Virus record (IMG/VR): IMGVR_UViG_2728369181_000005
Source: a virus
Lineage: Duplodnaviria > Heunggongvirae > Uroviricota > Caudoviricetes
Strand: one strand, 5' to 3'
Length of the DNA: 55,128 nt
A program made the position numbers and the translations under genes. Shown here in pieces: positions 2,862-52,188 of this stretch (position 1 is the stretch's first letter; each line of letters starts with the position of its first letter). Under the pieces are notes generated by a model, which had not been told where the DNA came from, ran no database searches, and saw nothing but the letters and a program-made list of their open reading frames with translations.

Positions 2862-3012
2862 ACCGCCCCCCGTTTATTATTTATCTCCTCAGCCAGCCGC
2901 TGGGCTTTCAGCGGATTTCGGATAACAGAAAGACCGTGAAATACCCAGCCTCGCTTTGTAACGGAGTAGACGAAAGTGATCGCGCCTACCCGGATATTAT
3001 CGTGAGGATGGG

Positions 3013-4475: not shown

Positions 4476-4480
4476 CCGTT

Positions 4481-4777
4481 TTATACCTCTGAATCAATAT
4501 CAACCTGGTGGTGAGCAATGGTTTCAACCATGTACCGGATGTGTTCTGCCATGCGCTCCTGAAACTCAACATCGTCATCAAACGCACGGGTAATGGCTTT
4601 TTTGCTGGCCCCGTGACGTTGCAAATGATCGATGCAGAGTGATTCAAACAGGTGCTGTGGAAGACCTTTTTCCATGTCGTCTGCCAGTTCTGCCTCTTTC
4701 TCTTCACGGGCGATCTGCTGGTAGTGACGTGCCCAGCTCTGAGCCTCAAGACGATCCTGAATGTAATAAGCGTTCAT
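4481..4777 (-). CDS. gam: Gam (RecBCD inhibitor), short form
   Basis: 98 aa matching lambda GamS ([21 protein letters not shown]...VDIDSEV). The upstream extension seen in lambda long Gam is not open here. Confidence 0.93.
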
Positions 4778-4840
4778 GGCTGAACTCCTGAAAATATCGC
4801 CCGCGAAATGCCAGGCTGATTAGGAAAACAGGAAAGGGGA

Positions 4841-5251
4841 TTAGTGATTCAGGCCGTTACCGCGTCCGTCGAGAAAAACTTCCACGAGCAAATCACGGGT
4901 ATAAGTGCGCTCGATGCCGCGATGCAGATATAGCCGTCCGCGTAAATTAGCTGATGCAGTCCAGGTACCATCTTTGTGTTTGACCAGCATTCCTGGCATG
5001 ACCGCACCTCGATTAACGGTCTGCGTTCCGTAATGTTGATGAACCATAAAAACTCCTGCCCGTAAGCTGGGCTGCTGAACATATAGAGACTTCTGCGCGT
5101 ATTCAGGCGGTGGATGGCCGCCGGTTGTCATAACTAAGTCGCCTCGTTGAAGCGACTGAGGTATGAAGTGTTGAGTTGATTCCAGCTGGTCACACCGACG
5201 TTCACGCGTCCGCTTCACCCCTCGCACTCCCCGGAGCCTGCTGAAATTCAA
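4841..5251 (-). CDS. Hypothetical protein at the N-gene position, Arg-rich N-terminus
   Basis: 136-codon ORF between the putative pL and gam; N-terminus RLRGVRGVKRTRERR is arginine-rich like N-type antiterminators, but no alignment to lambda N recognised. Confidence 0.35.
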   Translation of the reverse strand: MNFSRLRGVRGVKRTRERRCDQLESTQHFIPQSLQRGDLVMTTGGHPPPEYAQKSLYVQQPSLRAGVFMVHQHYGTQTVNRGAVMPGMLVKHKDGTWTASANLRGRLYLHRGIERTYTRDLLVEVFLDGRGNGLNH

Positions 5252-5299
5252 GCTGCGGATCTAAGCGGTCATCGCAACGGTGAATCAGGTGATTGCCGT

Positions 5300-5450
5300 A
5301 TCGTTGTGTTGTTGCGATGAATTCATTTAAAACTATAGTTGTTTTATCGTCAACAACAAAAGTTGTTTTGTTGGTTGTTTTAGATATAACTGGTTGTATT
5401 TAAGATGGATTTATTTTGTGACTTGCATCGCATAGCGATAACTGAAGCGA
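5300..5450 (-). promoter_or_regulatory. Putative oL/pL region
   Basis: Contains AACTATAGTTGTTTT and TGGTTGTTTT motifs resembling the AACAACCATAGTTTT / ATGGTTGTT operator-like palindromes between cI and cro; position equals lambda oL/pL. Confidence 0.35.
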
Positions 5451-5492
5451 GGTCGTGGTGGTTTTTTGAACGGTTTGTGTGATGAGGGGAGG

Positions 5493-5528
5493 CAAAAGAA
5501 AACCCGGCACGGTGGCCGGGTTATTAAT
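5493..5528 (-). terminator. Rho-independent terminator after the rex-slot operon
   Basis: CCCGGC-ACGGTG-GCCGGG hairpin (5503-5520) followed on the minus strand by TTTTCTTTT; about 28 nt beyond the stop at 5556. Confidence 0.6.
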
Positions 5529-5555
5529 AAGGAATATCACATACAAAAATAAATT

Positions 5556-6383
5556 TTAAACTTGGGGAAGTATTTTTTTTGCAAAATCAATAGTTTCTTT
5601 GTGGTTGGATGCAGGTATATGATTTATTTTCTTAGCATCCATAGTTCTCTTTATGATGTCAATAACTTTGCTTTGGCCTGCGTTTGGTGTTTCAGGAGTT
5701 TCAATTGTGAATAAAATGTCATCAAGTGAAAGCAGGTTTTCTTCTGCTGCTCGAGTTATTCTCATCACCCAAGTATCACTATGCTCCATCATTTTTCCTG
5801 GTTCAGCTTGAGTGAATGCCAGAGGTTTGATGGCACATTGGATCCTGTCATGCTTCTTGGCGACCAATGGCATTGAGAACTTTGCGAAATACCCATCAAT
5901 GGTTGCTTGTTTGAAGACGTTCTTCAATCCATCTATTCTATCGATACTTCGTTTTAGCTCTCTGGCTAGAACATCTTCACGGCGCTCTTTTGTATAGTCA
6001 GAGTGGTTTACATATTTATTGTAAATGCGGGCCAGCTCTTCTTTTGGGTTTTCGCTGAGAATCACTCTCGTAGAACTGAACTGAAAAATTGATTCTTTTT
6101 TGTTTGTAAAATATCTGAAGAATTGTGCAAGTTGTTGATGTCCAACAATCTGGGTCGCATGCATTTTTGCGAACTGTAGTTCTCTTTGTATTGAGTCTTT
6201 TGCTACAGGGAAAATACAATCATCATGGAAAAAATTCTTTACACGAGAGTCATTTCGCTTTGTGAGCTGGAAATCAAAGTAATTTTCTTTTGGCGCGCAC
6301 AGAAGTACGCCTATGTTTGCGAACTCTTCAGTCTCCGCATAAGGCGCATAGCGAACGATGCTATATAGGCATGGAGTTGTCAT
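5556..6383 (-). CDS. Hypothetical protein, second gene of the rex-slot operon
   Basis: AT-rich ORF; ATG at 6383 overlaps the upstream stop as ATGA. N-terminus YSIVRYAPYAETEEFANIGVLL is reminiscent of DUF3037-type proteins (from memory, unverified). Confidence 0.6.
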   Translation of the reverse strand: MTTPCLYSIVRYAPYAETEEFANIGVLLCAPKENYFDFQLTKRNDSRVKNFFHDDCIFPVAKDSIQRELQFAKMHATQIVGHQQLAQFFRYFTNKKESIFQFSSTRVILSENPKEELARIYNKYVNHSDYTKERREDVLARELKRSIDRIDGLKNVFKQATIDGYFAKFSMPLVAKKHDRIQCAIKPLAFTQAEPGKMMEHSDTWVMRITRAAEENLLSLDDILFTIETPETPNAGQSKVIDIIKRTMDAKKINHIPASNHKETIDFAKKILPQV

Positions 6384-7132
6384 TCTATTGCGCTCCAAAA
6401 TTCATCACAATCACCTTTGTCTAGCGTAGTGCAGACAAAAGGTAAAAACTCCTCATCTACTATCCACTCTTCTGGAATTTCGTCAAGGATAGCAGGAAGC
6501 TTGTGTAAACTGTTAACGACCCTCTGGCGGTACTCTACGCGATCCACTAAATCATATTGCCATTTGCGGTTACCAGGGCCGTACACGTGCACAGAAAAAT
6601 CTTCAGGTCCAGCATTCTGATCAAATGAGAGATTATGGTCAATCAGATAATACTTATCGTTACTGATGTCATAAAGGATGTTAACGTTTCCACCTTTGTC
6701 AGTAAGCGTTCTGTCTGCATTTAATATCCATTTATCAAAAACATAGATTAATTTTTGCTGTTCGACTGGGATGATCGTTTCGTTTCTTGACTGCGTAAAC
6801 GTTAACGCTATTGCACCGTCAATGAACAATGAAGCAAAGGCATATCCTGTACAAATTTGTTGCTGCAGATCAGGTGAGTACTCTATAAGTTCCTCTGGCA
6901 CAAATACGATTTTAAAGTCAGGTAAAGGAAGGCCGATATCATTAGCCAAACACGCCGAAATGAACTCAGCTAAGAGATTTTTCGGGGGCATTGATGGTTT
7001 TGACTTCAAAACATACAACTGCCCATCATCACATTTGCAAAGAAATGGCTGAGTGGAACCTTCATTGATGCGACGTATTACCTCAACGACATTAGGTATT
7101 GCACTATTGCTGCTCGCTACGCACTCCATCAC
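6380..7132 (-). CDS. Hypothetical kinase-like protein, first gene of the rex-slot operon
   Basis: 250-aa ORF 119 bp downstream of cI, same strand. Motifs suggest a protein-kinase-like fold: YVLK (beta-3 Lys), NADRTLTDKGGN (catalytic-loop-like D...N), LIDHN (DFG-like Asp). Confidence 0.6.
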   Translation of the reverse strand: MMECVASSNSAIPNVVEVIRRINEGSTQPFLCKCDDGQLYVLKSKPSMPPKNLLAEFISACLANDIGLPLPDFKIVFVPEELIEYSPDLQQQICTGYAFASLFIDGAIALTFTQSRNETIIPVEQQKLIYVFDKWILNADRTLTDKGGNVNILYDISNDKYYLIDHNLSFDQNAGPEDFSVHVYGPGNRKWQYDLVDRVEYRQRVVNSLHKLPAILDEIPEEWIVDEEFLPFVCTTLDKGDCDEFWSAIE

Positions 7133-7251
7133 TAACCCTTATGTGATTCAAGTCTTCCATCTCATTACTCCGCATCTCAAAGAGCGGTTTAACACTGCGT
7201 GTTTAAAGAAAAACAACAGGCCTATTGCTGTAACTGTTTTTTAGCCTCACT

Positions 7252-7941
7252 TTAACCATGCTTCCTATATGTCTGCGGCATGCTCCCAATAACCTTACCG
7301 AAGATAAACACCCGGTTCATCTCGTCTTTCTCGATCGGGTCCCACGGTGAGTAGCTCTTGTTATCAGAGATAACCAGCAGCTTATCCTTCATCATTTGCA
7401 GGCGCTTTACATGGGCTGTGTCGTCGTACAGAAACGCATAGATGCCATCACCGTCGAAAGATTTAACCGTGATATCAACGAACAGAAGATCACCTGGTTC
7501 GATCGTTCCTGACATGCTGTCACCGCGTACGTTAATGATGCGGATATTTTCTGCCTTCCTACCATCGAACATGTGACGAGCATCGTCAAACGAGTACTCA
7601 ACCGAGCGTAGAACTTCTACAAACTCACGGTTGATGACTCCCGGCCCGGCACTCACTTCTATATCAAGAACGTCAATTTTAAAGTATTTGGAATAGCTGA
7701 CAGTTGATGGTATTGGTTGCACTGTACTGTCTGACATATTTCCAACGCCAGAAGATAACCATTCTGCGCGCACACCCAAAGCGTTCGCGATCTCCACGAT
7801 TTTAGTTGTTTGGTTAGCTTTCCCTGTTTCGATTTTCTGAATAGCAGCTTGGCTAACCCCGACCAAATCCCCAAGCGCCTTTTGTGTAAGGCCTCGCGCT
7901 AATCTGGCTTCTTTAAGTCTTTCTGAGAGTGTTGTTTTCAT
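7252..7941 (-). CDS. cI: CI-type prophage repressor (HTH-XRE plus S24 LexA-like peptidase domain)
   Basis: N-terminal HTH (LTQKALGDLVGVSQAAIQKIETG) and C-terminal RGDSMSG...K autocleavage motifs; start at ATG 7941; divergent from cro across a 104-bp operator region. Not lambda immunity. Confidence 0.9.
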   Translation of the reverse strand: MKTTLSERLKEARLARGLTQKALGDLVGVSQAAIQKIETGKANQTTKIVEIANALGVRAEWLSSGVGNMSDSTVQPIPSTVSYSKYFKIDVLDIEVSAGPGVINREFVEVLRSVEYSFDDARHMFDGRKAENIRIINVRGDSMSGTIEPGDLLFVDITVKSFDGDGIYAFLYDDTAHVKRLQMMKDKLLVISDNKSYSPWDPIEKDEMNRVFIFGKVIGSMPQTYRKHG

Positions 7942-8045
7942 AGTCCAAATGTACAACCAAGGTTTTATTCCATCAAACGAAAATGGTTGTTGACTAAAAA
8001 CAACCATAGTTTTAATCTTGATTCAAATTAACCACGGAGGTTGTT
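7942..8045. promoter_or_regulatory. oR/pRM/pR immunity switch region
   Basis: Palindrome ATGGTTGTT-8 bp-AACAACCAT overlapping a TTGACT (-35, 7990-7995) / 17-bp spacer / TAATCT (-10, 8013-8018) promoter facing cro; related half-sites further left. Confidence 0.6.
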
Positions 8046-8276
8046 ATGAACCCAGCTATCAAAACAGCGATCAATATCGTTGGTTCACAAAAGAAACTGG
8101 GCGCTGCCTGCGAAGTTTCACAGCAGGCCGTCTATAAGTGGCTTCACAACAAAGCAAAGGTATCCCCTGAACATGTCGGCAGCATTGTTACGGCTACTGG
8201 TGGAGTAGTGAAGGCATACCAGATTCGCCCGGATCTTCCGAAGTTGTTTCCACACACCGAAAAGAACGCAGCTTAA
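8046..8276 (+). CDS. cro: Cro-like HTH regulator (YdaS/Cro family)
   Basis: 76-aa ORF divergent from cI with GGAGG SD at 8036-8040; HTH segment QKKLGAACEVSQQAVYKW. Confidence 0.8.
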   Translation: MNPAIKTAINIVGSQKKLGAACEVSQQAVYKWLHNKAKVSPEHVGSIVTATGGVVKAYQIRPDLPKLFPHTEKNAA

Positions 8277-8345
8277 ATTTCCATTTCACGCTCTTTAACA
8301 ATAAGCAATCAACTTAACAGTCAATTCAAACTAAAGGAGTCAATT

Positions 8346-8885
8346 ATGCAACCACTTACATACCAACAGACTAGCGGATTTAGCCCGACTGCGGTGATAA
8401 ATCGTTCTCAAACAAAACAGGTGCCAGGCCACGAAAAAATCCGTGATGCCGTCCGCGCCTGGTCGGCTGAAGATAATCAGGATGTTGTTGCCGCACTCAT
8501 TGTGAATGAGTATCGGGAGCAGGGCGGCGGCACCATCGATTTCCCTGATGATGTCAGCCGTGCACGCCAGAAGCTGTTCCGCTTCCTCGATAACAAATTC
8601 GATTCTGAAAAATACCGAAATAACGTGCGTGAACTGACCCCGGCAATTCTGGCGGTACTACCGCTGGACTATCGCGGCCACCTGGTTGAGCAGGATAGCT
8701 TCATGGCTCGGCTGGCTGAAATGGAAAAGGAACTCAGTGAGGCAAAGCAGGCGGTCATTCTCAACGCACCACGCCACCAGAAACTGAAGGAGATGAGTGA
8801 AGGCATTGTGTCGATGTTTCGAGTGGACCCGGATCTGGCTGGTCCATTGATGGCGATGGTCACCACCATGCTGGGGGCAATATGA
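8346..8885 (+). CDS. YdaT-like protein (occupies the cII position)
   Basis: 179 aa; EYREQGGG ... PAILAVLP motifs resemble Rac YdaT as recalled; immediately follows cro. Confidence 0.55.
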   Translation: MQPLTYQQTSGFSPTAVINRSQTKQVPGHEKIRDAVRAWSAEDNQDVVAALIVNEYREQGGGTIDFPDDVSRARQKLFRFLDNKFDSEKYRNNVRELTPAILAVLPLDYRGHLVEQDSFMARLAEMEKELSEAKQAVILNAPRHQKLKEMSEGIVSMFRVDPDLAGPLMAMVTTMLGAI

Positions 8886-8971
8886 CAGGTTCAAAAATGG
8901 TGAAAGTCGGTCTGCGGGAACAGAACCGACTTTCAGGTGCAAATCGTAACACACTCATTGCGGGAGGAATT

Positions 8972-9901
8972 ATGGCAAACACTGCTGAGATATTCAATTT
9001 TCCAGTGCCGGATGCGGCACAAAAGGAGCCGCGCGTGTCAGATCTCGATGATGGTTATACGCGCATTGCAAATGAGTTGCTGGAAGCTGTAATGCTGGCC
9101 GGATTAACACAGCACCAGCTTCTGGTCTTCCTGGCTGTCATGCGCAAAACATATGGCTTTAATAAAAAAATGGATTGGGTGAGCAACGAGCAACTTTCCG
9201 AGTTAACCGGGATATTGCCGCACAAGTGTTCTGCTGCAAAAAGTGTTCTGGTAAAGCGTGGGATTTTGATTCAGAGCGGGCGGAATATCGGCATTAATAA
9301 TGTGGTCAGTGAATGGTCAACATTACCCGAATCAGGTAAGAAAAATAAAGTTTACCTGAAAGAGGTAAAATTACCTGAATCAGGTAAGAAAAGTTTACCC
9401 AAATCAGGTAAAGGCGTTTACCCGAATCAGGTAAACACAAAAGACAAACTAACAAAAGACAATATAAAACCTTTTTCGTCCGAGAATTCTGACGAATCCT
9501 CTGACCAGCCAGAAAACGATCTTCCTGTGGTGAAACCGGATGCTGCAATTCAGAGCGGCAGCAAGTGGGGGACAGCAGAAGACCTGACCGCCGCAGAGTG
9601 GATGTTTGACATGGTGAAGACCATCGCGCCATCAGCCAGAAAACCGAATTTTGCAGGGTGGGCTAACGATATCCGCCTGATGCGTGAACGTGACGGACGT
9701 AACCACCGCGACATGTGTGTACTGTTCCGCTGGGCATGCCAGGACAACTTCTGGTCCGGTAACGTGCTGAGTCCGGCCAAACTCCGCGACAAGTGGACCC
9801 AGCTCGAAATCAACCGAAACAAGCAACAGGCTGGCGTGACAGCCGGCAAACCAAAACTCGACCTGACGAACACTGACTGGATTTACGGGGTGGAGCTATG
9901 A
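8972..9901 (+). CDS. O: Replication initiator O (hybrid: divergent N-terminus, lambda-identical C-terminus)
   Basis: GGGAGG SD before ATG 8972; N-terminus MANTAEIFNF parallels lambda O MTNTAKILNF; C-terminal ~110 aa match lambda O; iterons lie inside the gene. Confidence 0.9.
   Translation: MANTAEIFNFPVPDAAQKEPRVSDLDDGYTRIANELLEAVMLAGLTQHQLLVFLAVMRKTYGFNKKMDWVSNEQLSELTGILPHKCSAAKSVLVKRGILIQSGRNIGINNVVSEWSTLPESGKKNKVYLKEVKLPESGKKSLPKSGKGVYPNQVNTKDKLTKDNIKPFSSENSDESSDQPENDLPVVKPDAAIQSGSKWGTAEDLTAAEWMFDMVKTIAPSARKPNFAGWANDIRLMRERDGRNHRDMCVLFRWACQDNFWSGNVLSPAKLRDKWTQLEINRNKQQAGVTAGKPKLDLTNTDWIYGVEL
9320..9480. repeat. Replication origin iterons plus AT-rich flank inside O
   Basis: Four copies of TTACC(C/T)(G/A)AATCAGGTAA (9323-9340, 9371-9388, 9394-9411, 9417-9435) followed by an A-rich stretch; same architecture as ori-lambda. 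Confidence 0.85.
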
Positions 9902-10599
9902 AAAACATCGCCGCACAGATGGTTAACTTTGACCGTGAGCAGATGCGTCGGATCGCCAACAACATGCCGGAACAGTACGACGAAAAGCCGCAGGTACAAC
10001 AGGTAGCGCAGATCATCAATGGTGTGTTCAGCCAGTTACTGGCAACTTTCCCGGCGAGCCTGGCTAACCGGGACCAGAACGAACTGAACGAAATCCGCCG
10101 CCAGTGGGTGCTGGCTTTCCGGGAAAACGGGATCACCACAATGGAACAGGTTAACGCAGGAATGCGCGTAGCCCGTCGGCAGAATCGACCATTCCTGCCA
10201 TCACCCGGGCAGTTTGTTGCCTGGTGCCGGGAAGAAGCATCCGTTACCGCCGGGCTGCCAAACGCCAGCGAGCTGGTTGATATGGTTTACGAGTATTGCC
10301 GGAAGCGTGGCCTGTATCCGGACGCAGAGTCTTATCCATGGAAATCGAACGCGCACTACTGGCTGGTTACCAACCTGTACCAGAACATGCGAGCCAATGC
10401 GCTGACTGACGCGGAATTACGGCGCAAGGCTGCCGATGAACTGACCTGTATGACAGCGCGAATTAACCGTGGTGAGGCTATACCTGAACCAGTAAAACAA
10501 CTTCCTGTCATGGGCGGTAGACCTCTAAATCGTGCACAGGCTCTGGCGAAGATCGCAGAAATCAAAGCTAAGTTTGGGCTGAAAGGAGCAAGTGTATGA
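9898..10599 (+). CDS. P: Replication protein P (DnaB helicase loader)
   Basis: 233 aa, near-identical to lambda P (MKNIAAQMVNFDREQMRRIANNMPEQYDEKPQ...); ATGA overlap with O. Confidence 0.97.
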   Translation: MKNIAAQMVNFDREQMRRIANNMPEQYDEKPQVQQVAQIINGVFSQLLATFPASLANRDQNELNEIRRQWVLAFRENGITTMEQVNAGMRVARRQNRPFLPSPGQFVAWCREEASVTAGLPNASELVDMVYEYCRKRGLYPDAESYPWKSNAHYWLVTNLYQNMRANALTDAELRRKAADELTCMTARINRGEAIPEPVKQLPVMGGRPLNRAQALAKIAEIKAKFGLKGASV

Positions 10600-27048: not shown

Positions 27049-27293
27049 ATGTCGATGTTCACAACCGCCCAGCTGCTGGCGGCAAATGAGCAGAAATTTA
27101 AGTTTGATCCGCTGTTTCTGCGTCTCTTTTTCCGTGAAAGCTATCCCTTCACCACGGAGAAAGTCTATCTCTCACAAATTCCGGGACTGGTAAACATGGC
27201 GCTGTACGTTTCGCCGATTGTTTCCGGTGAGGTTATCCGCTCCCGTGGCGGCTCTACCTCCGAATTTACGCCGGGATATGTCAAGCCGAAGCA
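27049..27293 (+). pseudogene. E: Major capsid protein E, N-terminal fragment (gene split by island insertion)
   Basis: MSMFTTAQLLAANEQKFKFD...GYVKPKH matches the lambda gpE N-terminus, then reads into island DNA and stops at 27324. Confidence 0.9.
27284..27293. repeat. Left copy of 10-bp insertion core AGCCGAAGCA (attL core)
   Basis: Identical 10-mer at 38017-38026; the flanking bases differ, and joining the outer flanks restores a continuous E reading frame (VKPKHEVN). Confidence 0.8.
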
Positions 27294-27402
27294 CTTAGCA
27301 TGGCTTTCTGAGGCTTTCGTGTAGTTGCTGGTTTTTACACTTAATCTTTTGATAATAAAGAGTAAGTTTATCTGGCGCTTTCACTGGATTTTCCTCGTTA
27401 TC

Positions 27403-27441
27403 TGTGTGTTGCAATCATCTCTGTATTGCAGCTTGTATTGC
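27403..27441. repeat. TGT(A/G)TTGCA direct repeats at island left end (candidate integrase arm sites)
   Basis: TGTGTTGCAA, TGTATTGCAG, TGTATTGC within 39 bp just upstream of the island int start; same motif at 37920-37940. Confidence 0.5.
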
Positions 27442-27456
27442 TTTTTGGGGCTAAAA

Positions 27457-28692
27457 ATGGCTGGCGAGAACAAACTGAGCGACAAAGCACTTAAAGGATA
27501 TCTGGGGAAACCTAGAGAAAAGCAGATCACCATTGCTGATGGAAAGGGGCTTTCTATTCGTGTGAGTACCAAGGGGGCTGTGAGCTTTGTTTTCTTCTAC
27601 AGGTTAGCAGGTGGCCGGGCTGCTCCGGTCTGGCTAACGTTGGGTAAATATCCTGATATGTCACTCAAACAGGCAAGGGAAAAGCGCGACGAGTGCCGTG
27701 GTTGGTTGGCTGACAAACGTGATCCGCGTATTCAGATTAAGATTCAGGCTGAAGAACGCTTAAAGCCGGTCACAGTGGAGGATGCACTAAATTACTGGTA
27801 TGAAAATTACTGTAAGGTGCGTCGTAAAACTCATGCTGTAACGCTTGGCAGATTTCGAAAGCATATCTTTCCCTATATCGGTCATTTGCCCGTAAATGAC
27901 ACTCACCTATATGAATGGCTGGACTGTTTTGACCGAATTAAACGTAATGCACCAGTTATGGCGGCGTATGTTTTTTCTGACACTAAATTAGCTCTTCGTT
28001 TTTGTCGGGTACGCCAGTACGCGACGTGTGATGCTTTAAAGGATTTGCGCATGAGTGATGTGGGGCAGATTGCAGGTAAGCGGGATCGGGTTCTGGATGA
28101 AGCCGAACTGGGCCAGCTCTGGAAGGCAATTTTTGTCGAGCCTGATTTAAAACTAATGTCTGAATACACGCGAAAAATGTTTGTGCTTTGTACAGTATTT
28201 GGATGTCGAATGAGTGAAGCCCGATTATCAGAATGGAGCGAATGGGATCTAGAAAGTTGGGTTTGGACTGTACCGAAAGATCACTCAAAAACTGGTGTTG
28301 AAATTGTCAGGCCAGTACCTGAAATTCTACGGCAGTGGGTAACGGATGTTCACGAAGAGACAAAACATACTGGTTATGTGCTGGGAAGTCTGCGAATTAG
28401 AGAAAGCGTAAGCAAGATTGGGGGGAAAATCGGTAAACGTTTGGGCCATGAAAAACAATGGTCACTACACGACCTTAGAAGAACGCTATCTACTCATCTA
28501 AGTGATCTCGGTGTTGAATTTTATGTAGTAGAACAACTGTTAGGCCATGCGCTACCTGGCGTGGCAGGTGTTTACAACCGGAGTAAGTTTATGGCTAAAA
28601 AACTGGATGCTCTGGAACTCTGGACTACATATCTCAATAGCATCGCAGCTGCTGATTCAAAAGTGACAATCCTCAAACAAAAGGCTGGTTAG
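27457..28692 (+). CDS. int: Tyrosine integrase (P4-like family) of the island
   Basis: Start MAGENKLSDKALKGYLGKP...; C-terminal catalytic region with HDLRRT...LGH...Y; first gene at island left end. Confidence 0.88.
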   Translation: MAGENKLSDKALKGYLGKPREKQITIADGKGLSIRVSTKGAVSFVFFYRLAGGRAAPVWLTLGKYPDMSLKQAREKRDECRGWLADKRDPRIQIKIQAEERLKPVTVEDALNYWYENYCKVRRKTHAVTLGRFRKHIFPYIGHLPVNDTHLYEWLDCFDRIKRNAPVMAAYVFSDTKLALRFCRVRQYATCDALKDLRMSDVGQIAGKRDRVLDEAELGQLWKAIFVEPDLKLMSEYTRKMFVLCTVFGCRMSEARLSEWSEWDLESWVWTVPKDHSKTGVEIVRPVPEILRQWVTDVHEETKHTGYVLGSLRIRESVSKIGGKIGKRLGHEKQWSLHDLRRTLSTHLSDLGVEFYVVEQLLGHALPGVAGVYNRSKFMAKKLDALELWTTYLNSIAAADSKVTILKQKAG

Positions 28693-28693
28693 C

Positions 28694-28915
28694 ATGAAAA
28701 AAATGGCAATTGTTGATAAAAAGGGGCTGGAGTACATTCCTAACATTGACCGAATGATCCGTGAGAAAGAATGTCGGGAGCTAACCACTCTTGCGAACAG
28801 CACACGCTGGAAGCTTGAAAAGGAGGGGAAATTCCCCAAGCGAATCAAAATCGGATCTACGGCGGTGGCTTATAGACTCTCTGAGATTCAAGCTTGGATA
28901 AGAGGTGAATGGTAA
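28694..28915 (+). CDS. AlpA-family transcriptional regulator / excisionase-like
   Basis: 73 aa with AlpA-type HTH; directly follows the integrase. Confidence 0.7.
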   Translation: MKKMAIVDKKGLEYIPNIDRMIREKECRELTTLANSTRWKLEKEGKFPKRIKIGSTAVAYRLSEIQAWIRGEW

Positions 28916-28941: not shown

Positions 28942-29625
28942 TTACAGGAAATTTTTTAAATCAGGGTTTTTTCCAAATGCGCTCTTATAATATACTGTTG
29001 CAATCTCGTTAAAAATAGTTTTTATATCATCGGTAACCACTATTGTTGCTACGCGCAAATCTTTTTGATATTCATTTAAATCTGGAGGGGTATAGTCCAA
29101 TAGCGTTGATTTATCCAAGATTAAATGTTCTAACATGGCATAGCGCTCAATCAATGTTTTATAAAAATGATATTGATTTTCACTGTTAGCATGTGCACAG
29201 TTTATTGCAAGTAAATACGTTATTTCATTATCTAGATGTGCACGGACAAGGCTTGTATAGGTTTTTTTACGATCTAGATCAAAGGGATGGTATCCAGCAT
29301 TTTCATCAATGAACTTCAATAGATGATATAATATTCTGAAGTAGCTTCCAAAAACAGCATCATGATTGTGCATCAGTGTATTAGTGTCTTTTAAAGAAAC
29401 CAATCCATTCATCATTTTATTAATTAACTCTGAGTAATTTGATTTTTTTCTAAGATCATTTAGAGCATTGTTATGTTGAGATAACATGAGAGAAAATGTT
29501 GATTCAAAAGATGATTGCTTTTTAGCAATTAATGCAACTAACACTGCTGTGCAAGTCCCGAGTGCCACGAAGAAATTTATAATGTTTGATGCAGTGAATA
29601 CAGCATCGTCAGGAGTTGGAGTCAT
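28942..29625 (-). CDS. Hypothetical AT-rich membrane-anchored protein (candidate accessory/defence gene)
   Basis: 227 aa; N-terminal hydrophobic helix FFVALGTCTAVLVALIA; very AT-rich; follows the small regulator at 29658-29852 on the same strand. Confidence 0.45.
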   Translation of the reverse strand: MTPTPDDAVFTASNIINFFVALGTCTAVLVALIAKKQSSFESTFSLMLSQHNNALNDLRKKSNYSELINKMMNGLVSLKDTNTLMHNHDAVFGSYFRILYHLLKFIDENAGYHPFDLDRKKTYTSLVRAHLDNEITYLLAINCAHANSENQYHFYKTLIERYAMLEHLILDKSTLLDYTPPDLNEYQKDLRVATIVVTDDIKTIFNEIATVYYKSAFGKNPDLKNFL

Positions 29626-30862: not shown

Positions 30863-32679
30863 AACGTGCTCCGAACTTAAAATACCAACCGCGCGACAAA
30901 ATGACGGAAGTCATCATTTTTGCTGGCAGTGATGCCTGGAGCCATGCAAAAGAATGGAATGAATGGGCAGGTAAGCATATTGCAGCAGATGATACACCAC
31001 CAGTCATTCTGGGTACGGAACAACTGGAAAACCTGGATGATATGCAAATTATCGATGAAGGCCGTCATTATGTGCGTGTTTATCGTGCCGGAAAGATTGC
31101 AGAGAAAAGTCTGACGAAGGTTGCGACATTACTTGCTATTGCAGGCGTAAAGGAAGCACGTTGTTACCGTAGCTTTGTTGATCGAGAGCCTGAAGACTGG
31201 ACTCCGCGCCTTGTCGGCCTAAAAGCTGAAGCGGAGCATGGGGAAAGTCTGGTGATTGAACTGCCAGTGAAGAAGGCAGAGCGCAAAAATGACGAGCGTG
31301 CTTCATCTTTGGCGTTGAATCAGATGGGGGCCAGCCAGCGCGGTGAAGTTCTCCTTGCACATTACGGCGGCGAACTGGCAATCAATGCCGACTCTGACAC
31401 CGTTCATCATTACAACGGCGTTGTATGGGAGCCGGTTCAGGATAAAGAGTTACAGCGTGCTATGGCGCAGATTTTCATTGATGCGGAGATCAGCTATTCG
31501 CAGAACGCTATTAAATCGGCGGTAGATACCATGAAGTTAAGTTTGCCTGTAATGGGGAATACAGCCCGTAACCTGATTGGATTCAGTAACGGGGTATTTG
31601 ATACCAGAACTGGTAATTTTCGGGAGCATAACAAAAACGACTGGTTGTTAATTGCCAGTGAATTACCTTTCAGCCCACCAGCAGAGGGGGAAACGCTGGC
31701 AACACATGCGCCGAATTTCTGGAAGTGGTTGCGCCGTTCGGTGGCTGATAATGACCGCAAGGCAGATCGCGTACTGGCGGCATTATTCATGGTGCTGGCG
31801 AACCGGTACGACTGGCAGTTATTCATTGAGGTAACAGGGCCGGGGGGAAGTGGTAAAAGTGTGATGGCGGAGATTTGCACCATGCTGGCGGGTAAGGCGA
31901 ATACAGTATCAGCAAGCATGAAGGCGCTGGAAGATGCAAGGGAACGTGCGTTAGTGGTTGGCTTTTCGCTGATTATCATGCCGGATATGACCCGCTACGC
32001 TGGTGATGGGGCAGGGATTAAGGCCATTACAGGCGGTGACAAGGTGGCAATTGACCCGAAACACAAAGCCCCCTATTCAACGCGTATTCCGGCAGTAGTG
32101 CTGGCGGTTAACAATAACGCCATGTCATTCAGTGACCGCAGCGGGGGGATCTCACGTCGTCGGGTGATATTCAATTTTTCGGAAGTTGTACCGGAGAACG
32201 AACGCGATTCGATGCTGGCGGAAAAAATAGAAGGTGAGCTGGCGGTAGTGATTCGCCATCTGCTTACACGGTTTGCTGATCAGGACGAAGCCAGACGCCT
32301 GTTATATGAGCAGCAGAAATCTGAAGAAGCACTGGCGATAAAGCGAGAGGGGGATTCGCTGGTGGACTTCTGCGGCTATCTCATGGCATCGGTAATGTGT
32401 GATGGCCTGTTAGTGGGTAATGCTGAAATTGTGCCATTCAGCCCACGCAGGTATCTCTATCATGCCTATCTGGCTTATATGAGGGCACATGGGTTTGGTA
32501 AACCTGTAACACTGACGCGCTTCGGTAAAGATATGCCGGGGGCAATGGCGGAATATGGCAGGGAGTATATGAAACGGAAAACGAAGCACGGTTTGCGTTC
32601 AAACGTGACACTGACGGAGGAATCAGAAGACTGGATGCCATCATGTGTATCGGTCACTAATGACGATAGCAAAAATTAA
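30859..32679 (+). CDS. Primase-helicase (P4 alpha-like replication protein)
   Basis: 606 aa; Walker A GPGGSGKS and Walker B-like FSLIIMPDM in the C-terminal half; followed by an iteron array. Confidence 0.85.
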   Translation: MKRAPNLKYQPRDKMTEVIIFAGSDAWSHAKEWNEWAGKHIAADDTPPVILGTEQLENLDDMQIIDEGRHYVRVYRAGKIAEKSLTKVATLLAIAGVKEARCYRSFVDREPEDWTPRLVGLKAEAEHGESLVIELPVKKAERKNDERASSLALNQMGASQRGEVLLAHYGGELAINADSDTVHHYNGVVWEPVQDKELQRAMAQIFIDAEISYSQNAIKSAVDTMKLSLPVMGNTARNLIGFSNGVFDTRTGNFREHNKNDWLLIASELPFSPPAEGETLATHAPNFWKWLRRSVADNDRKADRVLAALFMVLANRYDWQLFIEVTGPGGSGKSVMAEICTMLAGKANTVSASMKALEDARERALVVGFSLIIMPDMTRYAGDGAGIKAITGGDKVAIDPKHKAPYSTRIPAVVLAVNNNAMSFSDRSGGISRRRVIFNFSEVVPENERDSMLAEKIEGELAVVIRHLLTRFADQDEARRLLYEQQKSEEALAIKREGDSLVDFCGYLMASVMCDGLLVGNAEIVPFSPRRYLYHAYLAYMRAHGFGKPVTLTRFGKDMPGAMAEYGREYMKRKTKHGLRSNVTLTEESEDWMPSCVSVTNDDSKN

Positions 32680-32690
32680 ACTTATGGAAT

Positions 32691-32916
32691 AACTGTTCAC
32701 CACTGTTCACCCTGTCATAAATATCTTTTATATCAGTATATTATAGGGTGAACAGTTATTTATGAACTGTTCACCAAACTATTCACTGTTCACCTTTTTG
32801 ATTGTTTATTGAGCTTCAAGGGTGAACAGTGGTGAACAGTTGGTGAATAGTTTTTGTGAAACTGTTCACCCATTAACATTATGAATTAAAAGAGAAAATA
32901 TCAAAAGGTGAACAGG
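32691..32916. repeat. Island replication-origin iterons
   Basis: About ten copies of ACTGTTCACC / GGTGAACAGT in both orientations immediately after the primase stop. Confidence 0.8.
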
Positions 32917-33658: not shown

Positions 33659-33875
33659 ATATTGCCAATAAAAAAAGGCCGGAAAAAATAAATTTTCCGG
33701 CATGCTACATAAATCCCGACCAAAGGGAGTGAAGATATTAACACTAATTGTCCGCACTGAAGTTGTCACCCCAAAACTTTATACAACATTGCACTTGGTT
33801 GCATGTGTTCGCATGACAAATATCGGTGGTAGCATATATCCACAATTATTTTTAATGAATGCAAAGAGGATGCGT

Positions 33876-34916
33876 ATGGTTGATTTATATTCGCCTACTC
33901 AGCTTGTACAGGTGGTTAATGCTGTAGATGTACAAAAACAACTAAATGCGTTGTTTACCAGTTTGTTTTTTACTCGCTCGGTAATGTTTGAATCGCGCGA
34001 TATTATTCTTGATACAATCGACGATCCAAATATCCCAATTGCAGCGTTTTGTTCTCCTATGGTGGGTAGTAAAGTTTCACGTGACGAAGGGTACGAATCA
34101 AAAACAATTCGTCCAGGCTATATGAAGCCGAAAAGCAGCATTGATCCAAATAAGTTAGCTGTGCGCCCTGCTGGTGTATCACCTGAGCAATACAATGCTT
34201 TTGGGGCGCGTAATATTAAAGTTAAACAGGCGATTGTAAATCAAGCTAAAGCTATTCGTGCACGTATTGAATGGCTTGCTGTTCAGGCAATCACAACGGG
34301 GAAAAATATCATTGAGGGCGATGGTATTGAACGTTATGAGCTGGACTGGAATATTAAACCACAAAATATCATCACTCAGTCTGGCGGTGCTGAGTGGTCA
34401 GGTAAGGATAAAGAAACTTTTGATCCAAATGATTATATTGAGAGCTACGCAGAATTTAGTGAGGGCGTCACTAATATTATCATTATGGGCGGTAATGTAT
34501 GGAAGAAATACCGTTCATTCAGAGCAATAAAAGAGGCTCTGGATACCCGTCGTGGTTCTAATTCCGAACTGGAAACGGCCCTTAAAGACCTTGGTGATTC
34601 GGTGAGTTTTAAAGGGTATATGGGCGATGTTGCGATTGTTGTTTACAGCGGGCGTTATACCGACGAGGACGGAACAGAAAAACATTTCCTTGATCCTGAT
34701 TTGATGGTGCTTGGCAATACGGCTCTTCAGGGGATTGTCGCCTATGGCGGTGTTCAGGATCCGGAGCTAATCCGAATGGGGCTGACTAAAGCCGAACTTG
34801 CACCGAAAAACTATATTGTGCCTGGTGATCCGGCTATTGAATATGTGCAGACACATTCAGCACCACAGCCAATACCGGCCCGCATCAATCGTTTTGTTAC
34901 CGTTCGCATTGGCTAA
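33876..34916 (+). CDS. Island-encoded major capsid protein (lambda gpE-like)
   Basis: AAGAGGA SD before ATG 33876; aligns with lambda E (GYMKPK vs GYVKPK; ITQSGGAEWSGKDKETFDPNDYIESYA; DTRRGSNSELETA; GDVAIVVYSG). Confidence 0.8.
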   Translation: MVDLYSPTQLVQVVNAVDVQKQLNALFTSLFFTRSVMFESRDIILDTIDDPNIPIAAFCSPMVGSKVSRDEGYESKTIRPGYMKPKSSIDPNKLAVRPAGVSPEQYNAFGARNIKVKQAIVNQAKAIRARIEWLAVQAITTGKNIIEGDGIERYELDWNIKPQNIITQSGGAEWSGKDKETFDPNDYIESYAEFSEGVTNIIIMGGNVWKKYRSFRAIKEALDTRRGSNSELETALKDLGDSVSFKGYMGDVAIVVYSGRYTDEDGTEKHFLDPDLMVLGNTALQGIVAYGGVQDPELIRMGLTKAELAPKNYIVPGDPAIEYVQTHSAPQPIPARINRFVTVRIG

Positions 34917-34925: not shown

Positions 34926-35267
34926 ATGGCTACTCATTACACTGAACTCATGGCTGGCACTGAAGCACTGGTGACTACGCTGGGGATATTTTCAGCTAAT
35001 AAAGGGGTAATTCCTGCATTTACGCCACTGATGCAGGAAGATGCAACAGGTGCACTGGTGGTATGGGATGGTTCGAGCGTAGGTAAAGCGGTTTATGTTT
35101 CCGCTGTACAAATCGACACCGCGAAAAAAACACAGGCTCAGGTCTATAAGACAGGTGTCTTAAATGTTGATGCTCTGAACTGGCCTGAGTCTGTTAAAGA
35201 ACTGTCAGTAAAGGTTGCAGCGTTTGTTGGCTCAGGTATTTCTGTTCAGCCGCTGGCTCGTGTGTAA
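34926..35267 (+). CDS. Island-encoded decoration protein (lambda gpD-like)
   Basis: 113 aa; LVVWDGSSVGKAV parallels lambda [14 protein letters not shown]; same length class. Confidence 0.6.
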   Translation: MATHYTELMAGTEALVTTLGIFSANKGVIPAFTPLMQEDATGALVVWDGSSVGKAVYVSAVQIDTAKKTQAQVYKTGVLNVDALNWPESVKELSVKVAAFVGSGISVQPLARV

Positions 35268-35770: not shown

Positions 35771-35878
35771 TGGTGGTTTTGTTGTTCGCTATATCTGTAT
35801 GAATAATAAGAGAAAAATACAATCAATACACCAACCTGAAACAGTAATTAAGTTGTGGTATCAATGAAATTACACCTG

Positions 35879-36406
35879 ATGAACAAAAAAAACATGGCAA
35901 AAAGTTGCCGTGTAAGCGCCACTGCGTTCGATAAGTGGGGAGTGATTCCCGTCGAGCGTAAGGGCCGTGAGGCGTTCTATGATGTTGCCAGTGTAATAGA
36001 TAATCGGGTTAACAATGCAATCAGCCAGATTACAAACGAAACGGGCGATATTGATGACGATGAACTTTTACGCGTCAGGATCAGATTACTGACAGCACAG
36101 GCAGAGGCGCAGGAGCTTAAAAACGAGCGCGAACGCGGCGACGTTATTGATACAGAGTTTTGTATGTATGTTCTTTCCAAACTGGCGAGTCAGATTTCAT
36201 CTATCATGGACAGCCTGCCGCTTACCATGCAAAGGCGCTTCCCACAGATGACTCCGGCTATGCTGGATGGACTTAAAAAGGAAGTGGCTAAAGCCTGTAA
36301 TGCCAGTGCCGGCGTTGCTGACAACCTCCCACAGATACTGGCTGATTATCTGATGGAAAGTACAGGAAACGTACCGGATAAGTTGCAGCTGAATAAGGAT
36401 AAGTAA
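35879..36406 (+). CDS. Island small terminase (Nu1-like, diverged)
   Basis: Aligns with lambda Nu1 (VIPVERKGREAFYDV vs MPVLRGGGKGNEVLYD; AQAEAQELKNERERGDVIDTEFC vs AQADAQELKNARDSAEVVETAFC); start codon choice (35864/35879/35894) uncertain. Confidence 0.7.
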   Translation: MNKKNMAKSCRVSATAFDKWGVIPVERKGREAFYDVASVIDNRVNNAISQITNETGDIDDDELLRVRIRLLTAQAEAQELKNERERGDVIDTEFCMYVLSKLASQISSIMDSLPLTMQRRFPQMTPAMLDGLKKEVAKACNASAGVADNLPQILADYLMESTGNVPDKLQLNKDK

Positions 36407-37095: not shown

Positions 37096-37857
37096 TTATT
37101 TCCCATCTTTAAGGTTTAACCAAGTGTTAATTAAAAAAAGAGCCATTGAGCCTGATAAATTTACTGCAAGTTCGGCATGCCTTGGGGATGGCTTAATTGA
37201 TGAGCTGTTCGTTCCATGTGCATCACCGAGTTTATTACGAAGAGTACCTAACCCATTTACAACTGCAGAACAACCGCCGAGAATTTGTTTGAAGATATTT
37301 TCAGTATGTTGGTCGGCAGATAGGTTAAGTTCTTTTGAAAGAGTTTTATAAAGCTCTGACATTTCAATATTTTTATTATTATACTGAATGCCCATATCAT
37401 CAAGAATGTGTTTGCAAACTGTTTCAAGAAGTGTTCTTGCGGAGGTTATCGCACCATCCGGATCTGTATGGCGCCGTTCAAGTGCTTTTATCCAAACGGC
37501 GTGGACTCCATCCTCGTTAAACTTTCTTAATACATCAGATATGTCTTCATCCGCTGGAGCTTTATTTTTCCCTTCTAGATAGTCCAGCATCGGCTGAAAT
37601 GCCTTATAAATCAAATCTCTCCGGGGGGCATACTTTTCAGTCTTTTTTATAAATCCCCAAAATTCTTTTAGTGAGCGATTAGTTCTCACAAACTCTGGTA
37701 ATAGCTGATGTAAAGGAGGATTTTGTAAGAAATATGTTCTTAGAAGCAAATAATCATTATTAGCTTCATCCTGGGCTCCTGTAGCTCTTGCAATTAGTAT
37801 GTTTTGAAGCGCTACTGCGCGCTCTAGGTCATTTTGAAGGGTATCTATAATATTCAT
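37096..37857 (-). CDS. Abortive-infection-like protein (Abi_C/HEPN-type motif)
   Basis: 253 aa, AT-rich, opposite strand at the island right end; C-terminal GTLRNKLGDAHG (R-x6-H) matches the Abi_C/HEPN signature as recalled. Confidence 0.6.
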   Translation of the reverse strand: MNIIDTLQNDLERAVALQNILIARATGAQDEANNDYLLLRTYFLQNPPLHQLLPEFVRTNRSLKEFWGFIKKTEKYAPRRDLIYKAFQPMLDYLEGKNKAPADEDISDVLRKFNEDGVHAVWIKALERRHTDPDGAITSARTLLETVCKHILDDMGIQYNNKNIEMSELYKTLSKELNLSADQHTENIFKQILGGCSAVVNGLGTLRNKLGDAHGTNSSSIKPSPRHAELAVNLSGSMALFLINTWLNLKDGK

Positions 37858-37919
37858 AACAAATCTTTATTCACTTCATTTGTGGGTTGATAATTGAATG
37901 GTTTGTACATTGATTTCTG

Positions 37920-37940
37920 TGTATTGCAGTGTGTATTGCA
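37920..37940. repeat. TGTATTGCA direct repeats at island right end
   Basis: TGTATTGCAG and TGTATTGCA, same orientation as the left-end copies. Confidence 0.5.
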
Positions 37941-38016: not shown

Positions 38017-38026
38017 AGCCGAAGCA
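38017..38026. repeat. Right copy of 10-bp insertion core AGCCGAAGCA (attR core)
   Basis: Identical to 27284-27293. Confidence 0.8.
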
Positions 38027-38807
38027 TGAGGTGAATCCGCAGATGACCCTGCGTCGCCTGCCGGATGAAGATCCACAGAATCTGGCGGATCCGGCTTACC
38101 GTCGCCGTCGCATCATCATGCAGAACATGCGTGACGAAGAGCTGGCCATTGCCCAGGTCGAAGAGATGCAGGCAGTTTCTGCCGTGCTTAAGGGCAAATA
38201 CACCATGACCGGTGAAGCCTTCGATCCGGTTGAGGTGGATATGGGCCGCAGTGCGGCGAACAACATCACGCAGTCCGGCGGTACGGAGTGGAGCAAGCGT
38301 GACAAGTCCACGTATGACCCGACCGACGATATCGAAGCCTACGCGCTGAACGCCAGCGGTGTGGTGAATATCATCGTGTTCGATCCGAAAGGCTGGGCGC
38401 TGTTCCGTTCCTTCAAAGCCGTCAGGGAGAAGCTGGATACCCGTCGCGGCTCTCATTCTGAGCTGGAGACAGCGGTGAAAGACCTGGGTAAAGCGGTGTC
38501 CTATAAGGGGATGTATGGCGATGTGGCCATCGTCGTGTATTCCGGACAGTACGTGGAAAACGGTGTCAAAAAGAACTTCCTGCCGGACAACACGATGGTG
38601 CTTGGGAACACTCAGGCACGCGGTCTGCGCACCTATGGCTGTATTCAGGATGCGGATGCATTGAGTGAGGGTATTAATGCGTCTCCCCGTTATCCGAAAA
38701 ACTGGAAGACATCCGGCGATCCGGCGCGTGAGTTCACCATGATTCAGTCAGCACCGCTGATGCTGCTGGCTGATCCTGATGAGTTCGTGTCCGTACAACT
38801 GGCGTAA
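38020..38807 (+). pseudogene. E: Major capsid protein E, C-terminal fragment
   Basis: PKHEVNPQMTLRRLPDEDPQNL... to ...DEFVSVQLA matches lambda gpE from residue ~83 onward; no start of its own. Confidence 0.9.
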
Positions 38808-50069: not shown

Positions 50070-50127
50070 ATTTTAAAACCCAAATTCGGGCACCAGAAAT
50101 GGTGCCTTTTTTATTTGTGGAGTGAAT

Positions 50128-52188
50128 ATGGCAGTACAGATTTCAGGTGTGCTGAAAGACGGTGCAGGAAAACCGATACAGAACTGCACCATTCAGCTCA
50201 AAGCAAAACGTAACAGCACCACAGTTGTGGTGAACACGGTGGCCTCAGAAAATCCGGATGAAGCCGGACGTTACAGCATGGATGTTGAGTATGGCCAGTA
50301 CAGCGTCGCCCTGCTGGTTGAAGGTTTTCCGCCTTCACATGCCGGGACCATCACCGTGTATGAGGATTCTAAGCCGGGGACATTGAATGATTTTCTGGGC
50401 GCTGCAACAGAAGATGATGTTTGTCCGGAGGCACTGTATCGTTTTGAAAAGATGGTGGAAGAGGCGGCACGCAACGCTGAAGCCGCCTCTCAGAGCGCAG
50501 CGGCAGCAAAGAAATCAGAAACAGCAGCGGCATCGTCCAGGAACGCGGCGAAAACATCAGAGACGAATGCAGGTAACAGCGCGAAAGCGGCAGCTTCTTC
50601 AAAAACAGCCGCACAAAACGCAGCAACAGCGGCAGAACGTTCAGAGACAAATGCCCGTGCGTCAGAAGAAGCCTCCGCAGACAGTGAAGAGGCTTCCCGC
50701 CGTAATGCAGAGTCAGCCGCTGAAAATGCCGGAGTCGCCACCACAAAAGCGCGGGAGGCCGCAGCAGACGCAACAAAGGCCGGGCAGAAAAAGGATGAGG
50801 CTCTGTCGGCAGCGACACGGGCTGAAAAGGCGGCAGACCGTGCAGAAGCCGCAGCGGAAGTGACGGCAGAGCCTTATGCGAATATAGTGCCGCCGCTGCC
50901 TGATGTGTGGATACCGTTTAACGATTCACTGGATATGATTGCGGGTTTTTCTCCGGGCTATAAAAAAATAGCTATTGGTGACGATGTGGTTCAGGTCGCC
51001 AGTGATAAACAGGTTAGTTTCACGCGCGCATCAACGGCAACCTATATCAACAAATCTGGTGAACTGAAAACAGCGGAAATTAATGAGCCGCGATTTGAGC
51101 GCGAAGGTCTGCTGATTGAGGGGCAAAGAACTAATTACATGCTGAATTCGGAAACTCCGGCCAGTTGGGGCAAGTCGGTAAATATGGATGTTCCCGAAAC
51201 CGGGAAGGATAGTTTTGGTTTTACCTATGGAAAGTTCGTCTGTAACGATTCTCTGATTGGGCAAACCTCAGCTATTAATATGGCATCAATTGCTGCAACA
51301 AAGTCAGTTGATGTCTCAGGCGATAATAAGTACGTGACAACCTCATGCCGTTTTAAAACAGAACGACAGGTAAGGTTACGTATACGGTTTGATAAGTATG
51401 ATGGTAGTGCAACAACTTTTCTTGGCGATGCGTACATTGATACGCAAACGCTTGAAATTAATATGACAGGTGGTGCTGCCGGCAGAATTACGGCACGAGT
51501 CAGGAAGGATAAGACCACAGGCTGGATTTTTGCAGAGGCAACGATTCAGGCAATTGATGGTGAGTTAAAAATAGGCTCTCAGATACAGTATTCTCCTGAG
51601 CGGGGTGGGGCAACAGTATCTGGTGACTATATTTATCTTGCCACCCCACAAGTAGAGAATGGGCCGTGTGTATCATCATTTATTATTTCAGGAGGCAGCG
51701 CAACGACAAGAGCCAGTGATTTGGTTAGTATCCCCACCAGAAATAATCTTTATAAGTTACCATTTACTTTTTCACTTGAGATTCATAAAAACTGGGATAT
51801 TGCACCAAACGCCGCACCCCGCGTGTGGGATATAGCAGCAGCCAATACCGGGCAATCAGCAATTGCAGCAATCAACAGAGGTAGTGGTAAGTTATATATG
51901 AGTCTGTCAAACCCTTCAGGCTCGTATGTTAATAGCGCAGCGACAGATGTATTTGCAGAGAAAACCACATTTGGATGTATTGCAAAAGCTGATGGTTACT
52001 TTCATGTGGTGACAAATGGTAAAGCGGTTAATGAAGTTTATTGTGAATATAATGGCGTGACCGCTGATAAAAATATCCGATTTGGAGGGCAGACGAATAC
52101 TGGAGAACGACATCTGTTTGGCCATATTCGCAATTTCCGCATATGGCATAAAGAATTAAATGACAGGCAATTAAAAGAGGTCGTATGA
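50128..52188 (+). CDS. stf: Side tail fibre protein (Stf-like)
   Basis: N-terminus MAVQISGVLKDGAGKPIQNCTIQLKAKRNSTTVVVNT... matches the conserved Stf N-terminal domain; Ala/Ser-rich repeat shaft; divergent C-terminus. Confidence 0.8.
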   Translation: MAVQISGVLKDGAGKPIQNCTIQLKAKRNSTTVVVNTVASENPDEAGRYSMDVEYGQYSVALLVEGFPPSHAGTITVYEDSKPGTLNDFLGAATEDDVCPEALYRFEKMVEEAARNAEAASQSAAAAKKSETAAASSRNAAKTSETNAGNSAKAAASSKTAAQNAATAAERSETNARASEEASADSEEASRRNAESAAENAGVATTKAREAAADATKAGQKKDEALSAATRAEKAADRAEAAAEVTAEPYANIVPPLPDVWIPFNDSLDMIAGFSPGYKKIAIGDDVVQVASDKQVSFTRASTATYINKSGELKTAEINEPRFEREGLLIEGQRTNYMLNSETPASWGKSVNMDVPETGKDSFGFTYGKFVCNDSLIGQTSAINMASIAATKSVDVSGDNKYVTTSCRFKTERQVRLRIRFDKYDGSATTFLGDAYIDTQTLEINMTGGAAGRITARVRKDKTTGWIFAEATIQAIDGELKIGSQIQYSPERGGATVSGDYIYLATPQVENGPCVSSFIISGGSATTRASDLVSIPTRNNLYKLPFTFSLEIHKNWDIAPNAAPRVWDIAAANTGQSAIAAINRGSGKLYMSLSNPSGSYVNSAATDVFAEKTTFGCIAKADGYFHVVTNGKAVNEVYCEYNGVTADKNIRFGGQTNTGERHLFGHIRNFRIWHKELNDRQLKEVV

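Follow-up and report, generated by a model that had tools for sequence, protein, structure and literature searches.

The two ends of a 10.7-kb island in the window (the whole 55,128-nt stretch of a Caudoviricetes virus that was analyzed, IMG/VR record IMGVR_UViG_2728369181_000005) carry one doublet each of the form TGTATTGC-N4-TGTATTGC, and we interpret these two doublets, with a probability of roughly 0.8, as the arm-type sites with which a helper-embedded PICI (HE-PICI) equips its attachment site. Such satellites were described by Tommasini, Mageeney and Williams, with the type element 11capE in capsid gene E of the icd prophage of E. coli NRG857c (NAR Genom Bioinform 5:lqad036; PMC10111431). 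They reported a doubled motif, tgTGTATTGCantgTGTATTGCa, present as two co-oriented copies per HE-PICI and stated to be unique to HE-PICIs and absent from fis PICIs, for which the integrase arm domains, AlpA or an unknown protein were proposed as the binder (Tommasini et al., 2023; PMC10111431). The repeats and their proposed function are, therefore, already known as a published hypothesis, and, the biology and the motif having both appeared in 2023, the finding itself adds little. Whereas that paper leaves the binder open, variant doublets in fis satellites are here seen to covary with the arm domain of the integrase (Int); this covariation is new and argues against AlpA as the binder. A literature search for later work testing binding to the HE-PICI doublet found none.

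The island is of low GC content (31-56%, mostly below 50%, against 55-63% in its flanks) and splits the lambda-type major capsid gene E of a helper prophage after the residues ...GYVKPKH. The 5' fragment of the gene occupies 27049-27293 on the + strand; its translation matches the N-terminus of lambda gpE, and E. coli records carry the annotation 'major capsid protein' (x3) under the match. The 3' part (...EVNPQMTLRRLPDED...) lies at 38017-38807, also on the + strand. A 10-bp identity block, AGCCGAAGCA, stands on the + strand at both junctions, as the attL core at 27284-27293 and as the attR core at 38017-38026, and its first 7 bp, A[G/A]CC[G/A/C]AA, are common to relatives. Precise excision of the island would restore gene E; for the type element, such excision has been shown experimentally (Tommasini et al., 2023; PMC10111431). 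From its gene content and position we conclude that the island is a phage satellite of the PICI-like kind, seated inside its helper prophage.

The island encodes a P4-type tyrosine integrase of 411 aa at 27457-28692 on the + strand (Pfam PF13356, PF14659, PF22022 and PF00589), in which an arm-binding domain of approximately residues 1-95 is followed by SAM-like/central and catalytic domains. The Arm-DNA-bind_3 domain (PF13356) is recognized at residues 7-93 with an E-value of 3.6e-19, and residues 17-93 match, at low sequence identity, the PDB entries 3JU0 (E=3e-6) and 3JTZ (E=2e-5), in which the arm-type binding domains of two integrases, HAI7 and HPI, have been solved. A mechanical list of open reading frames starts int at a TTG at 27325, and the frame then spans all three of the left repeats. 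Judged by conservation, the true start is the ATG at 27457, because the N-terminus MAGENKLSDK that follows from it is conserved in relatives. Directly 3' of int, at 28694-28915 on the + strand, lies a gene for an AlpA-family protein (PF05930, E=1.4e-15), likely an excisionase or activator. Other genes of the island code for a DUF4222 protein, a D5-type primase/helicase, an SSB and a second AlpA-like protein; those for a putative AbiC and for an RHH protein are on the strand opposite to int.

The + strand sequence of the left end is atctgTGTGTTGCAatcatctcTGTATTGCAgctTGTATTGCTttttggggctaaaaATG and contains the left doublet at 27422-27442, 15 nt before the ATG of int; that of the right end is tctgTGTATTGCAgtgTGTATTGCAaca and contains the right doublet at 37920-37940 in the same orientation. 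The initial annotation had noted co-oriented repeats at both island ends, those on the left 5' of int, and the window sequence bears this out: all five copies are on the + strand. It had counted three copies on the left and two on the right, and five copies are indeed present, of which the conserved set is two plus two. The first left copy, TGTGTTGCA at 27405-27413, is degenerate, with one mismatch, and stands 17 bp 5' of the left doublet. The second, TGTATTGCA at 27422-27430, is exact; the third, TGTATTGCT at 27434-27442, has one mismatch; and the right copies, both exact TGTATTGCA, are at 37920-37928 and 37932-37940. The period within each doublet (left copies 2 and 3, right copies 1 and 2) is 12 bp.

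A search allowing at most one mismatch in the 16 bases returns exactly two doublets TGTATTGC-N4-TGTATTGC in the whole window, one per island end. Three same-strand neighbor pairs no more than 30 bp apart are present in the window, against a mean of 0.08 in dinucleotide shuffles, and none of the 300 shuffles reached three. Chance is thereby excluded for the clustering of the repeats at the island ends. Single copies, by contrast, are at the chance level, since 21 with at most one mismatch are observed against 17.7 expected. The initial annotation had seen the motif nowhere else, which proved incorrect: the whole-window search gives four exact copies of TGTATTGCA (27422, 37920, 37932 and 51976), and outside the two clusters there are 16 scattered copies, 15 with one mismatch and the exact one at 51976-51984, in accord with the chance rate. 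The solitary exact copy at 51976-51984 falls within a 688-aa open reading frame of the helper prophage (50122-52188) and has no partner copy; it is consistent with chance.

The window agrees with the published element in the sequence of the motif, its copy number, its positions and the type of element, and we find no material difference. Relative to the attP center, the published motif copies of HE-PICIs are upstream by 81 +/- 2 bp and downstream by 132 +/- 2 bp (Tommasini et al., 2023; PMC10111431); in the window, the right motif end (37940) is 81 bp from the block center at 38021.5, and 131.5 bp separate the block center at 27288.5 from position 27420, where the left motif starts. As an identity block, agccgaagca is shared by many entries in site group E_Phage_cap_E_80 of the table in that paper (PMC10111431). 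The island thus combines the doubled motif, the published distances and an insertion in a phage late gene with an integrase of the HE-PICI clade.

The doublets are retained at different levels of divergence. An Int-based search of a species-genome collection gave three close relatives; two relatives recognized by their integrases, in Kosakonia (89% identical) and in Cedecea (83%), interrupt a capsid gene at the same codon and keep both doublets, while their right-arm flanks and cargo differ. More distant elements in E. coli, with integrases about 50% identical, have the same doublets at both ends. Their targets are a gene for the terminase large subunit (E. coli 042), a portal gene and, within another PICI, a protease/capsid fusion gene. 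In E. coli O114:H49 90-9280 (locus L006, 15349-27579), an HE-PICI interrupts the ClpP-protease/capsid fusion gene of a second PICI-like island, so that one satellite is nested in another, and an extra TATTGCA abuts the right core of the HE-PICI.

Measured from start to start, the distances from core to left doublet and from right doublet to core are 138/97 bp in the window, 139/95 bp in the terminase-gene element, 142/91 bp in the protease-gene element and 138/94 bp in the portal-gene element, such that the pair-to-pair distance in attP is 232-235 bp across four phage late-gene targets. Among loci collected by protein homology alone, a perfect left doublet is present in 35 of 35 distinct regions upstream of int, and a second, co-oriented doublet follows 8.6-11.2 kb downstream of the first in 52 of 57 distinct loci of this kind, the remaining five presumably extending beyond the flank that was retrieved. 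An alignment-based scan of viral sequences was dominated by near-identical capsid-group elements and served as a sample independent of the motif. About 35 of the doublet matches in IMG/VR were set aside as unrelated chance or tandem-repeat matches in other viruses. Throughout, the two 8-mers are invariant, and the N4 spacer (AGTG, ACAA, TACG, AGCA and others), the flanks and the cargo vary.

The first left copy does not share this conservation. Kosakonia and Cedecea have the decayed forms TGCGTTGCA and CGCGTTGCG in its place; of the site groups, only the capsid and protease ones retain a GTTGCA at -17, which is absent from the terminase group; and the portal group has an exact third copy on the opposite, downstream side of the doublet. 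On these grounds the idea that elements of this family generally have a third arm site on the left was rejected, the copy being degenerate and lineage-specific. The conserved unit, as judged from these comparisons, is one doublet per arm, and the count of three plus two should read two plus two; TGTGTTGCA at 27405-27413 is a doubtful, lineage-specific third site, possibly a weak extra arm site.

The satellites inserted at fis, which have integrases closely related to those of the HE-PICIs, show the same architecture with other sequences, a point that is new, as the variant doublets are not described in the 2023 paper (PMC10111431). The attL/attR sequences in its supplement end short of the motif, and we located the E. 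coli fis PICI through the fis junction. This element (L128, E. coli PE15) has its own doublet, cTGTATAAACAnnTGTATAAACA, in two co-oriented copies: copy 1 ends about 20 bp before int and is 143 bp from the core start, and copy 2, at the far end, is 90 bp before the core, the distances summing to 233 bp. The fis satellites share with the HE-PICIs this geometry (about 143/90 bp, with a 12-bp period) and differ in the doublet itself, which is TGTATAAACA in E. coli and S. marcescens, GTGTATCAC in S. plymuthica and Klebsiella, GTGGGGTAC in Pectobacterium and Xenorhabdus, and GTGTAGTCT in Yersinia. In full, the doublet reads GTGTATCACG on both arms in Serratia plymuthica (143/90 bp), G(T/A)GTATCACT on both arms in Klebsiella and GTGGGGTACA in Pectobacterium; the S. 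marcescens arm type resembles the E. coli fis one. In Sodalis a GAATAACAG pair precedes int of an element (L211) in a prophage-like region, and a search of that element for the fis core found none. The variant loci are L128, L204, L206, L207, L208, L209, L210 and L211, the last being the Sodalis element.

The integrase relatives sort into distinct arm-domain types. In Xenorhabdus, GTGGGGTAC was predicted from the arm type and then found. In IMG/VR, 8 of 12 GTGGGGTAC doublets are fis-PICI arms (four left and four right), two contigs having both arms, and all four integrases downstream of the GTGGGGTAC left-arm doublets are of the matching arm type.

These variants were used to compare the candidate binders by covariation. 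Between the E. coli and Pectobacterium fis satellites, AlpA is 83% and the rest of Int 81% identical, the arm domain is 59% identical and the doublets are unrelated; between E. coli and S. marcescens, which have the same doublet, the corresponding values are 78% for AlpA, 72% for the rest of Int and 77% for the arm domain. The DNA identity dips over the doublet and over the start of int, to about its nucleotide 170. Because AlpA and the rest of Int remain about 80% identical across a complete change of motif, the doublet sequence tracks the arm domain of Int, rather than AlpA or the rest of Int; host factors are constant, and therefore cannot explain a changing motif. There is one counter-case, S. 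plymuthica and Yersinia, where the motifs differ and the arm domains are still 72% identical. It is also possible that the covariation partly reflects linkage rather than contact, because in the circular form a stretch of about 600 bp contains both doublets, the core and the arm-coding region, which could be exchanged as a cassette. The HE-PICIs present the complementary case: among 13 representatives with the same doublet, mean pairwise identity is 69% over Int residues 1-95 and 51% over the rest of Int, with AlpA at a mean of 54% and a minimum of 33%.

The reading in which AlpA binds the doublets, as an excisionase or directionality factor or as an activator of int, has in its favor that alpA is directly 3' of int and that Xis-type factors typically have tandem direct repeats spaced by about one helical turn. 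AlpA is also an alternative binder named in the HE-PICI paper (PMC10111431). It is, however, 78-83% identical among three fis satellites, one of which has a completely different doublet, and falls to 33-49% identity among HE-PICIs whose doublet is invariant. Moreover, sites of a directionality factor normally lie on one arm and would covary with that factor, whereas the doublets are found on both arms at fixed distances and vary independently of AlpA. We have rejected AlpA as the doublet binder on this covariation, and regard such a role as very unlikely. A regulatory reading, in which the doublets would be operators or promoter elements for int on the left and for the divergent Abi_C cargo gene on the right, instead of recombination sites, draws on the proximity of the left doublet to the int ATG and on the position of the right doublet, which has a weak promoter-like match (37989-37961, - strand) on one side and the start of Abi_C (37857) on the other. 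Against this, the right-flank cargo is wholly different among relatives in which the doublet and its distance to the core are fixed; no sigma-70-like promoter was detected over the left doublet or upstream of int, for which reason an int promoter overlapping that doublet was rejected; and a pure operator would not need a constant spacing of 232-235 bp across the crossover site. We hold it unlikely as an account of the doublets in its own right. A regulatory role can nonetheless coexist with recombination: in KplE1, the intS promoter is overlapped by the arm sites of attL, and IntS regulates its own expression.

There is still less to recommend the reading of the repeats as replication-origin iterons, packaging signals or chance repeats, to which we give hardly any credence, even though the repeats are short, tandem and located in AT-rich non-coding DNA at the ends of a mobile element. 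Chance is excluded by the shuffles and by conservation. An iteron-rich, origin-like region is found elsewhere, at 32678-32893, just 3' of the D5-type primase gene, where dense direct and inverted repeats of the GGTGAACAG type, with arms of 54 and 36 nt, are probably the replication origin of the satellite. The same doublet also accompanies different packaging modules, Nu1-type here and P27-type TerS/HNH/TerL in E. coli 042, which speaks against a packaging signal. Origin iterons and packaging sites were rejected on these two observations.

The reading as Int arm-type sites, which the initial annotation had proposed for the repeats at attL and attR, draws support from the arm domain, the geometry, the conservation, the covariation and the published hypothesis. 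There is a separate N-terminal arm domain, the repeats stand on both arms at a fixed distance from the core and are unlike it in sequence, and they covary with that domain. The computational evidence as a whole supports settling the published question of the binder for the arm domain of Int over AlpA, and leaves the arm-site reading well supported.

The proposed mechanism would run as follows. On circularization, the right island end would join the left end to form attP, with the order doublet, about 75 bp, a crossover core of 7-10 bp, about 130 bp, doublet, int. As a heterobivalent protein, Int would bind and cut at the core in capsid gene E with its C-terminal domains, and each subunit of an Int tetramer would hold, with its N-terminal arm domain, one of the four half-sites in the two doublets: two arm domains would occupy the int-proximal left doublet (P'; ctTGTATTGCAgctTGTATTGCt, 27420-27442, + strand), and two further ones the int-distal right doublet (P; tgTGTATTGCAgtgTGTATTGCa, 37918-37940, + strand). 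The arm contacts would probably span a bend made by a host factor. A search with the IHF consensus WATCAANNNNTTR gave one exact match, TATCAAAAGATTA at 27342-27354 on the - strand, on the left (long) arm between the attL core and the left doublet, and none on the right; by eye, the match is only partly conserved in relatives. The stretch 27342-27354 is a candidate bending site. Two fis PICIs (L128 and L206) have similar strings of the form AATCAAnnnnTTR at about 60 bp from their core. The intasome so assembled would carry out integration into, and precise excision from, the helper capsid gene. More speculatively, occupancy of the left doublet may also damp the expression of int, because that doublet ends so close (15 nt) before its start codon. 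We infer the physical binding, its stoichiometry, the bending and the autoregulation from what is observed directly, namely the sites, their geometry and conservation, the arm domain and the covariation.

One of the closest parallels is lambda attP (P1, P2 and P'1-P'3, bound by the Int N-terminal domain), which likewise serves a heterobivalent tyrosine integrase; each of its arms has short repeated sites at a distance from the core, and on the int-proximal side the tandem sites are adjacent. The lambda site for a host bending factor, between arm and core, has its possible counterpart in the candidate at 27342-27354. Unlike lambda, the island has an arm domain of the Arm-DNA-bind_3 family in Pfam (P4/CP4-57 type), four conserved half-sites instead of five, all co-oriented with a 12-bp period, and a phage late gene instead of a bacterial locus as its target. 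The P and P' sites of lambda are inverted relative to each other. The geometry of the island intasome may differ from that of lambda, because all half-sites of the island are co-oriented.

The KplE1, HPI and HAI7 systems are a further parallel, with P4-type integrases and a solved arm domain homologous to island Int residues 17-93. In the IntS/TorI system of KplE1 (CPS-53), int reads away from attL, so that the int promoter is overlapped by the arm sites of P' and IntS acts as its own repressor; the island differs in that no promoter was detected over its left doublet. The hypothesis of 2023 is that int is probably read from helper late transcription (Tommasini et al., 2023; PMC10111431).

If this reading is right, the repeats mark the attachment machinery of a satellite seated in the capsid gene of its helper prophage, and the sites would be part of a switch that times capsid production by the helper, because gene E is restored only when the satellite excises. 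The paired-doublet architecture extends to the sister fis satellites with other sequences, and the matched pairs of arm domain and doublet could be used in swap experiments and in the engineering of orthogonal integrases. An example of a designed point-mutant half-site is the change of TGTATTGC to TGTCGTGC.

At least four doublet variants occur among fis elements with one common core. Because of these variants, and of a mixed-type locus in Xenorhabdus, we tentatively raise the possibility that the arm domain and the doublets form an exchangeable specificity module, which diversifies among satellites that compete for one attachment site. If so, satellites that are in tandem or share a host might, through orthogonal arm specificities, avoid cross-reaction during integration and excision. 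PICIs would then show a kind of recombination incompatibility grouping that has not been described for them. The mixed-type locus (L210, Xenorhabdus nematophila; 9712-9731 and 9942-9965) has a TGTATAAACA-type doublet, a right arm, 88 bp to the left of the fis core, and the element to the right of the core uses GTGGGGTAC-type doublets; the former looks as if it came from a second fis satellite of different arm specificity, present as a tandem partner or as a remnant. In another locus, which adjoins holE and has arm type D (L205; 9751-9772 and 9956-9974), a GTGGGGCACG doublet is found 250 bp upstream of int, with a weak CTAGCCA pair nearer int; this arrangement is off the usual geometry, and the GTGGGGCACG doublet may be another remnant.

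Two further features of the island concern its cargo and its capsid genes. Two abortive-infection-type genes, identified by Pfam as putAbiC (28942-29625) and Abi_C (37096-37857), both on the - strand, occupy variable positions of the island. In some of the 40 complete E. coli genomes with the island in the same place, a TIR-domain gene replaces the AbiC gene. This suggests that the variable positions are a hotspot of defense genes, because the replacement occurs in an otherwise 96%-identical island. The satellite has, in addition, its own lambda E-like capsid gene (33702-34916), D-like decoration gene (34926-35267) and Nu1-like small terminase gene (35855-36406), and its capsid gene is 70% identical to that of the helper over 135 nt (34511-34645 against 38405-38539).
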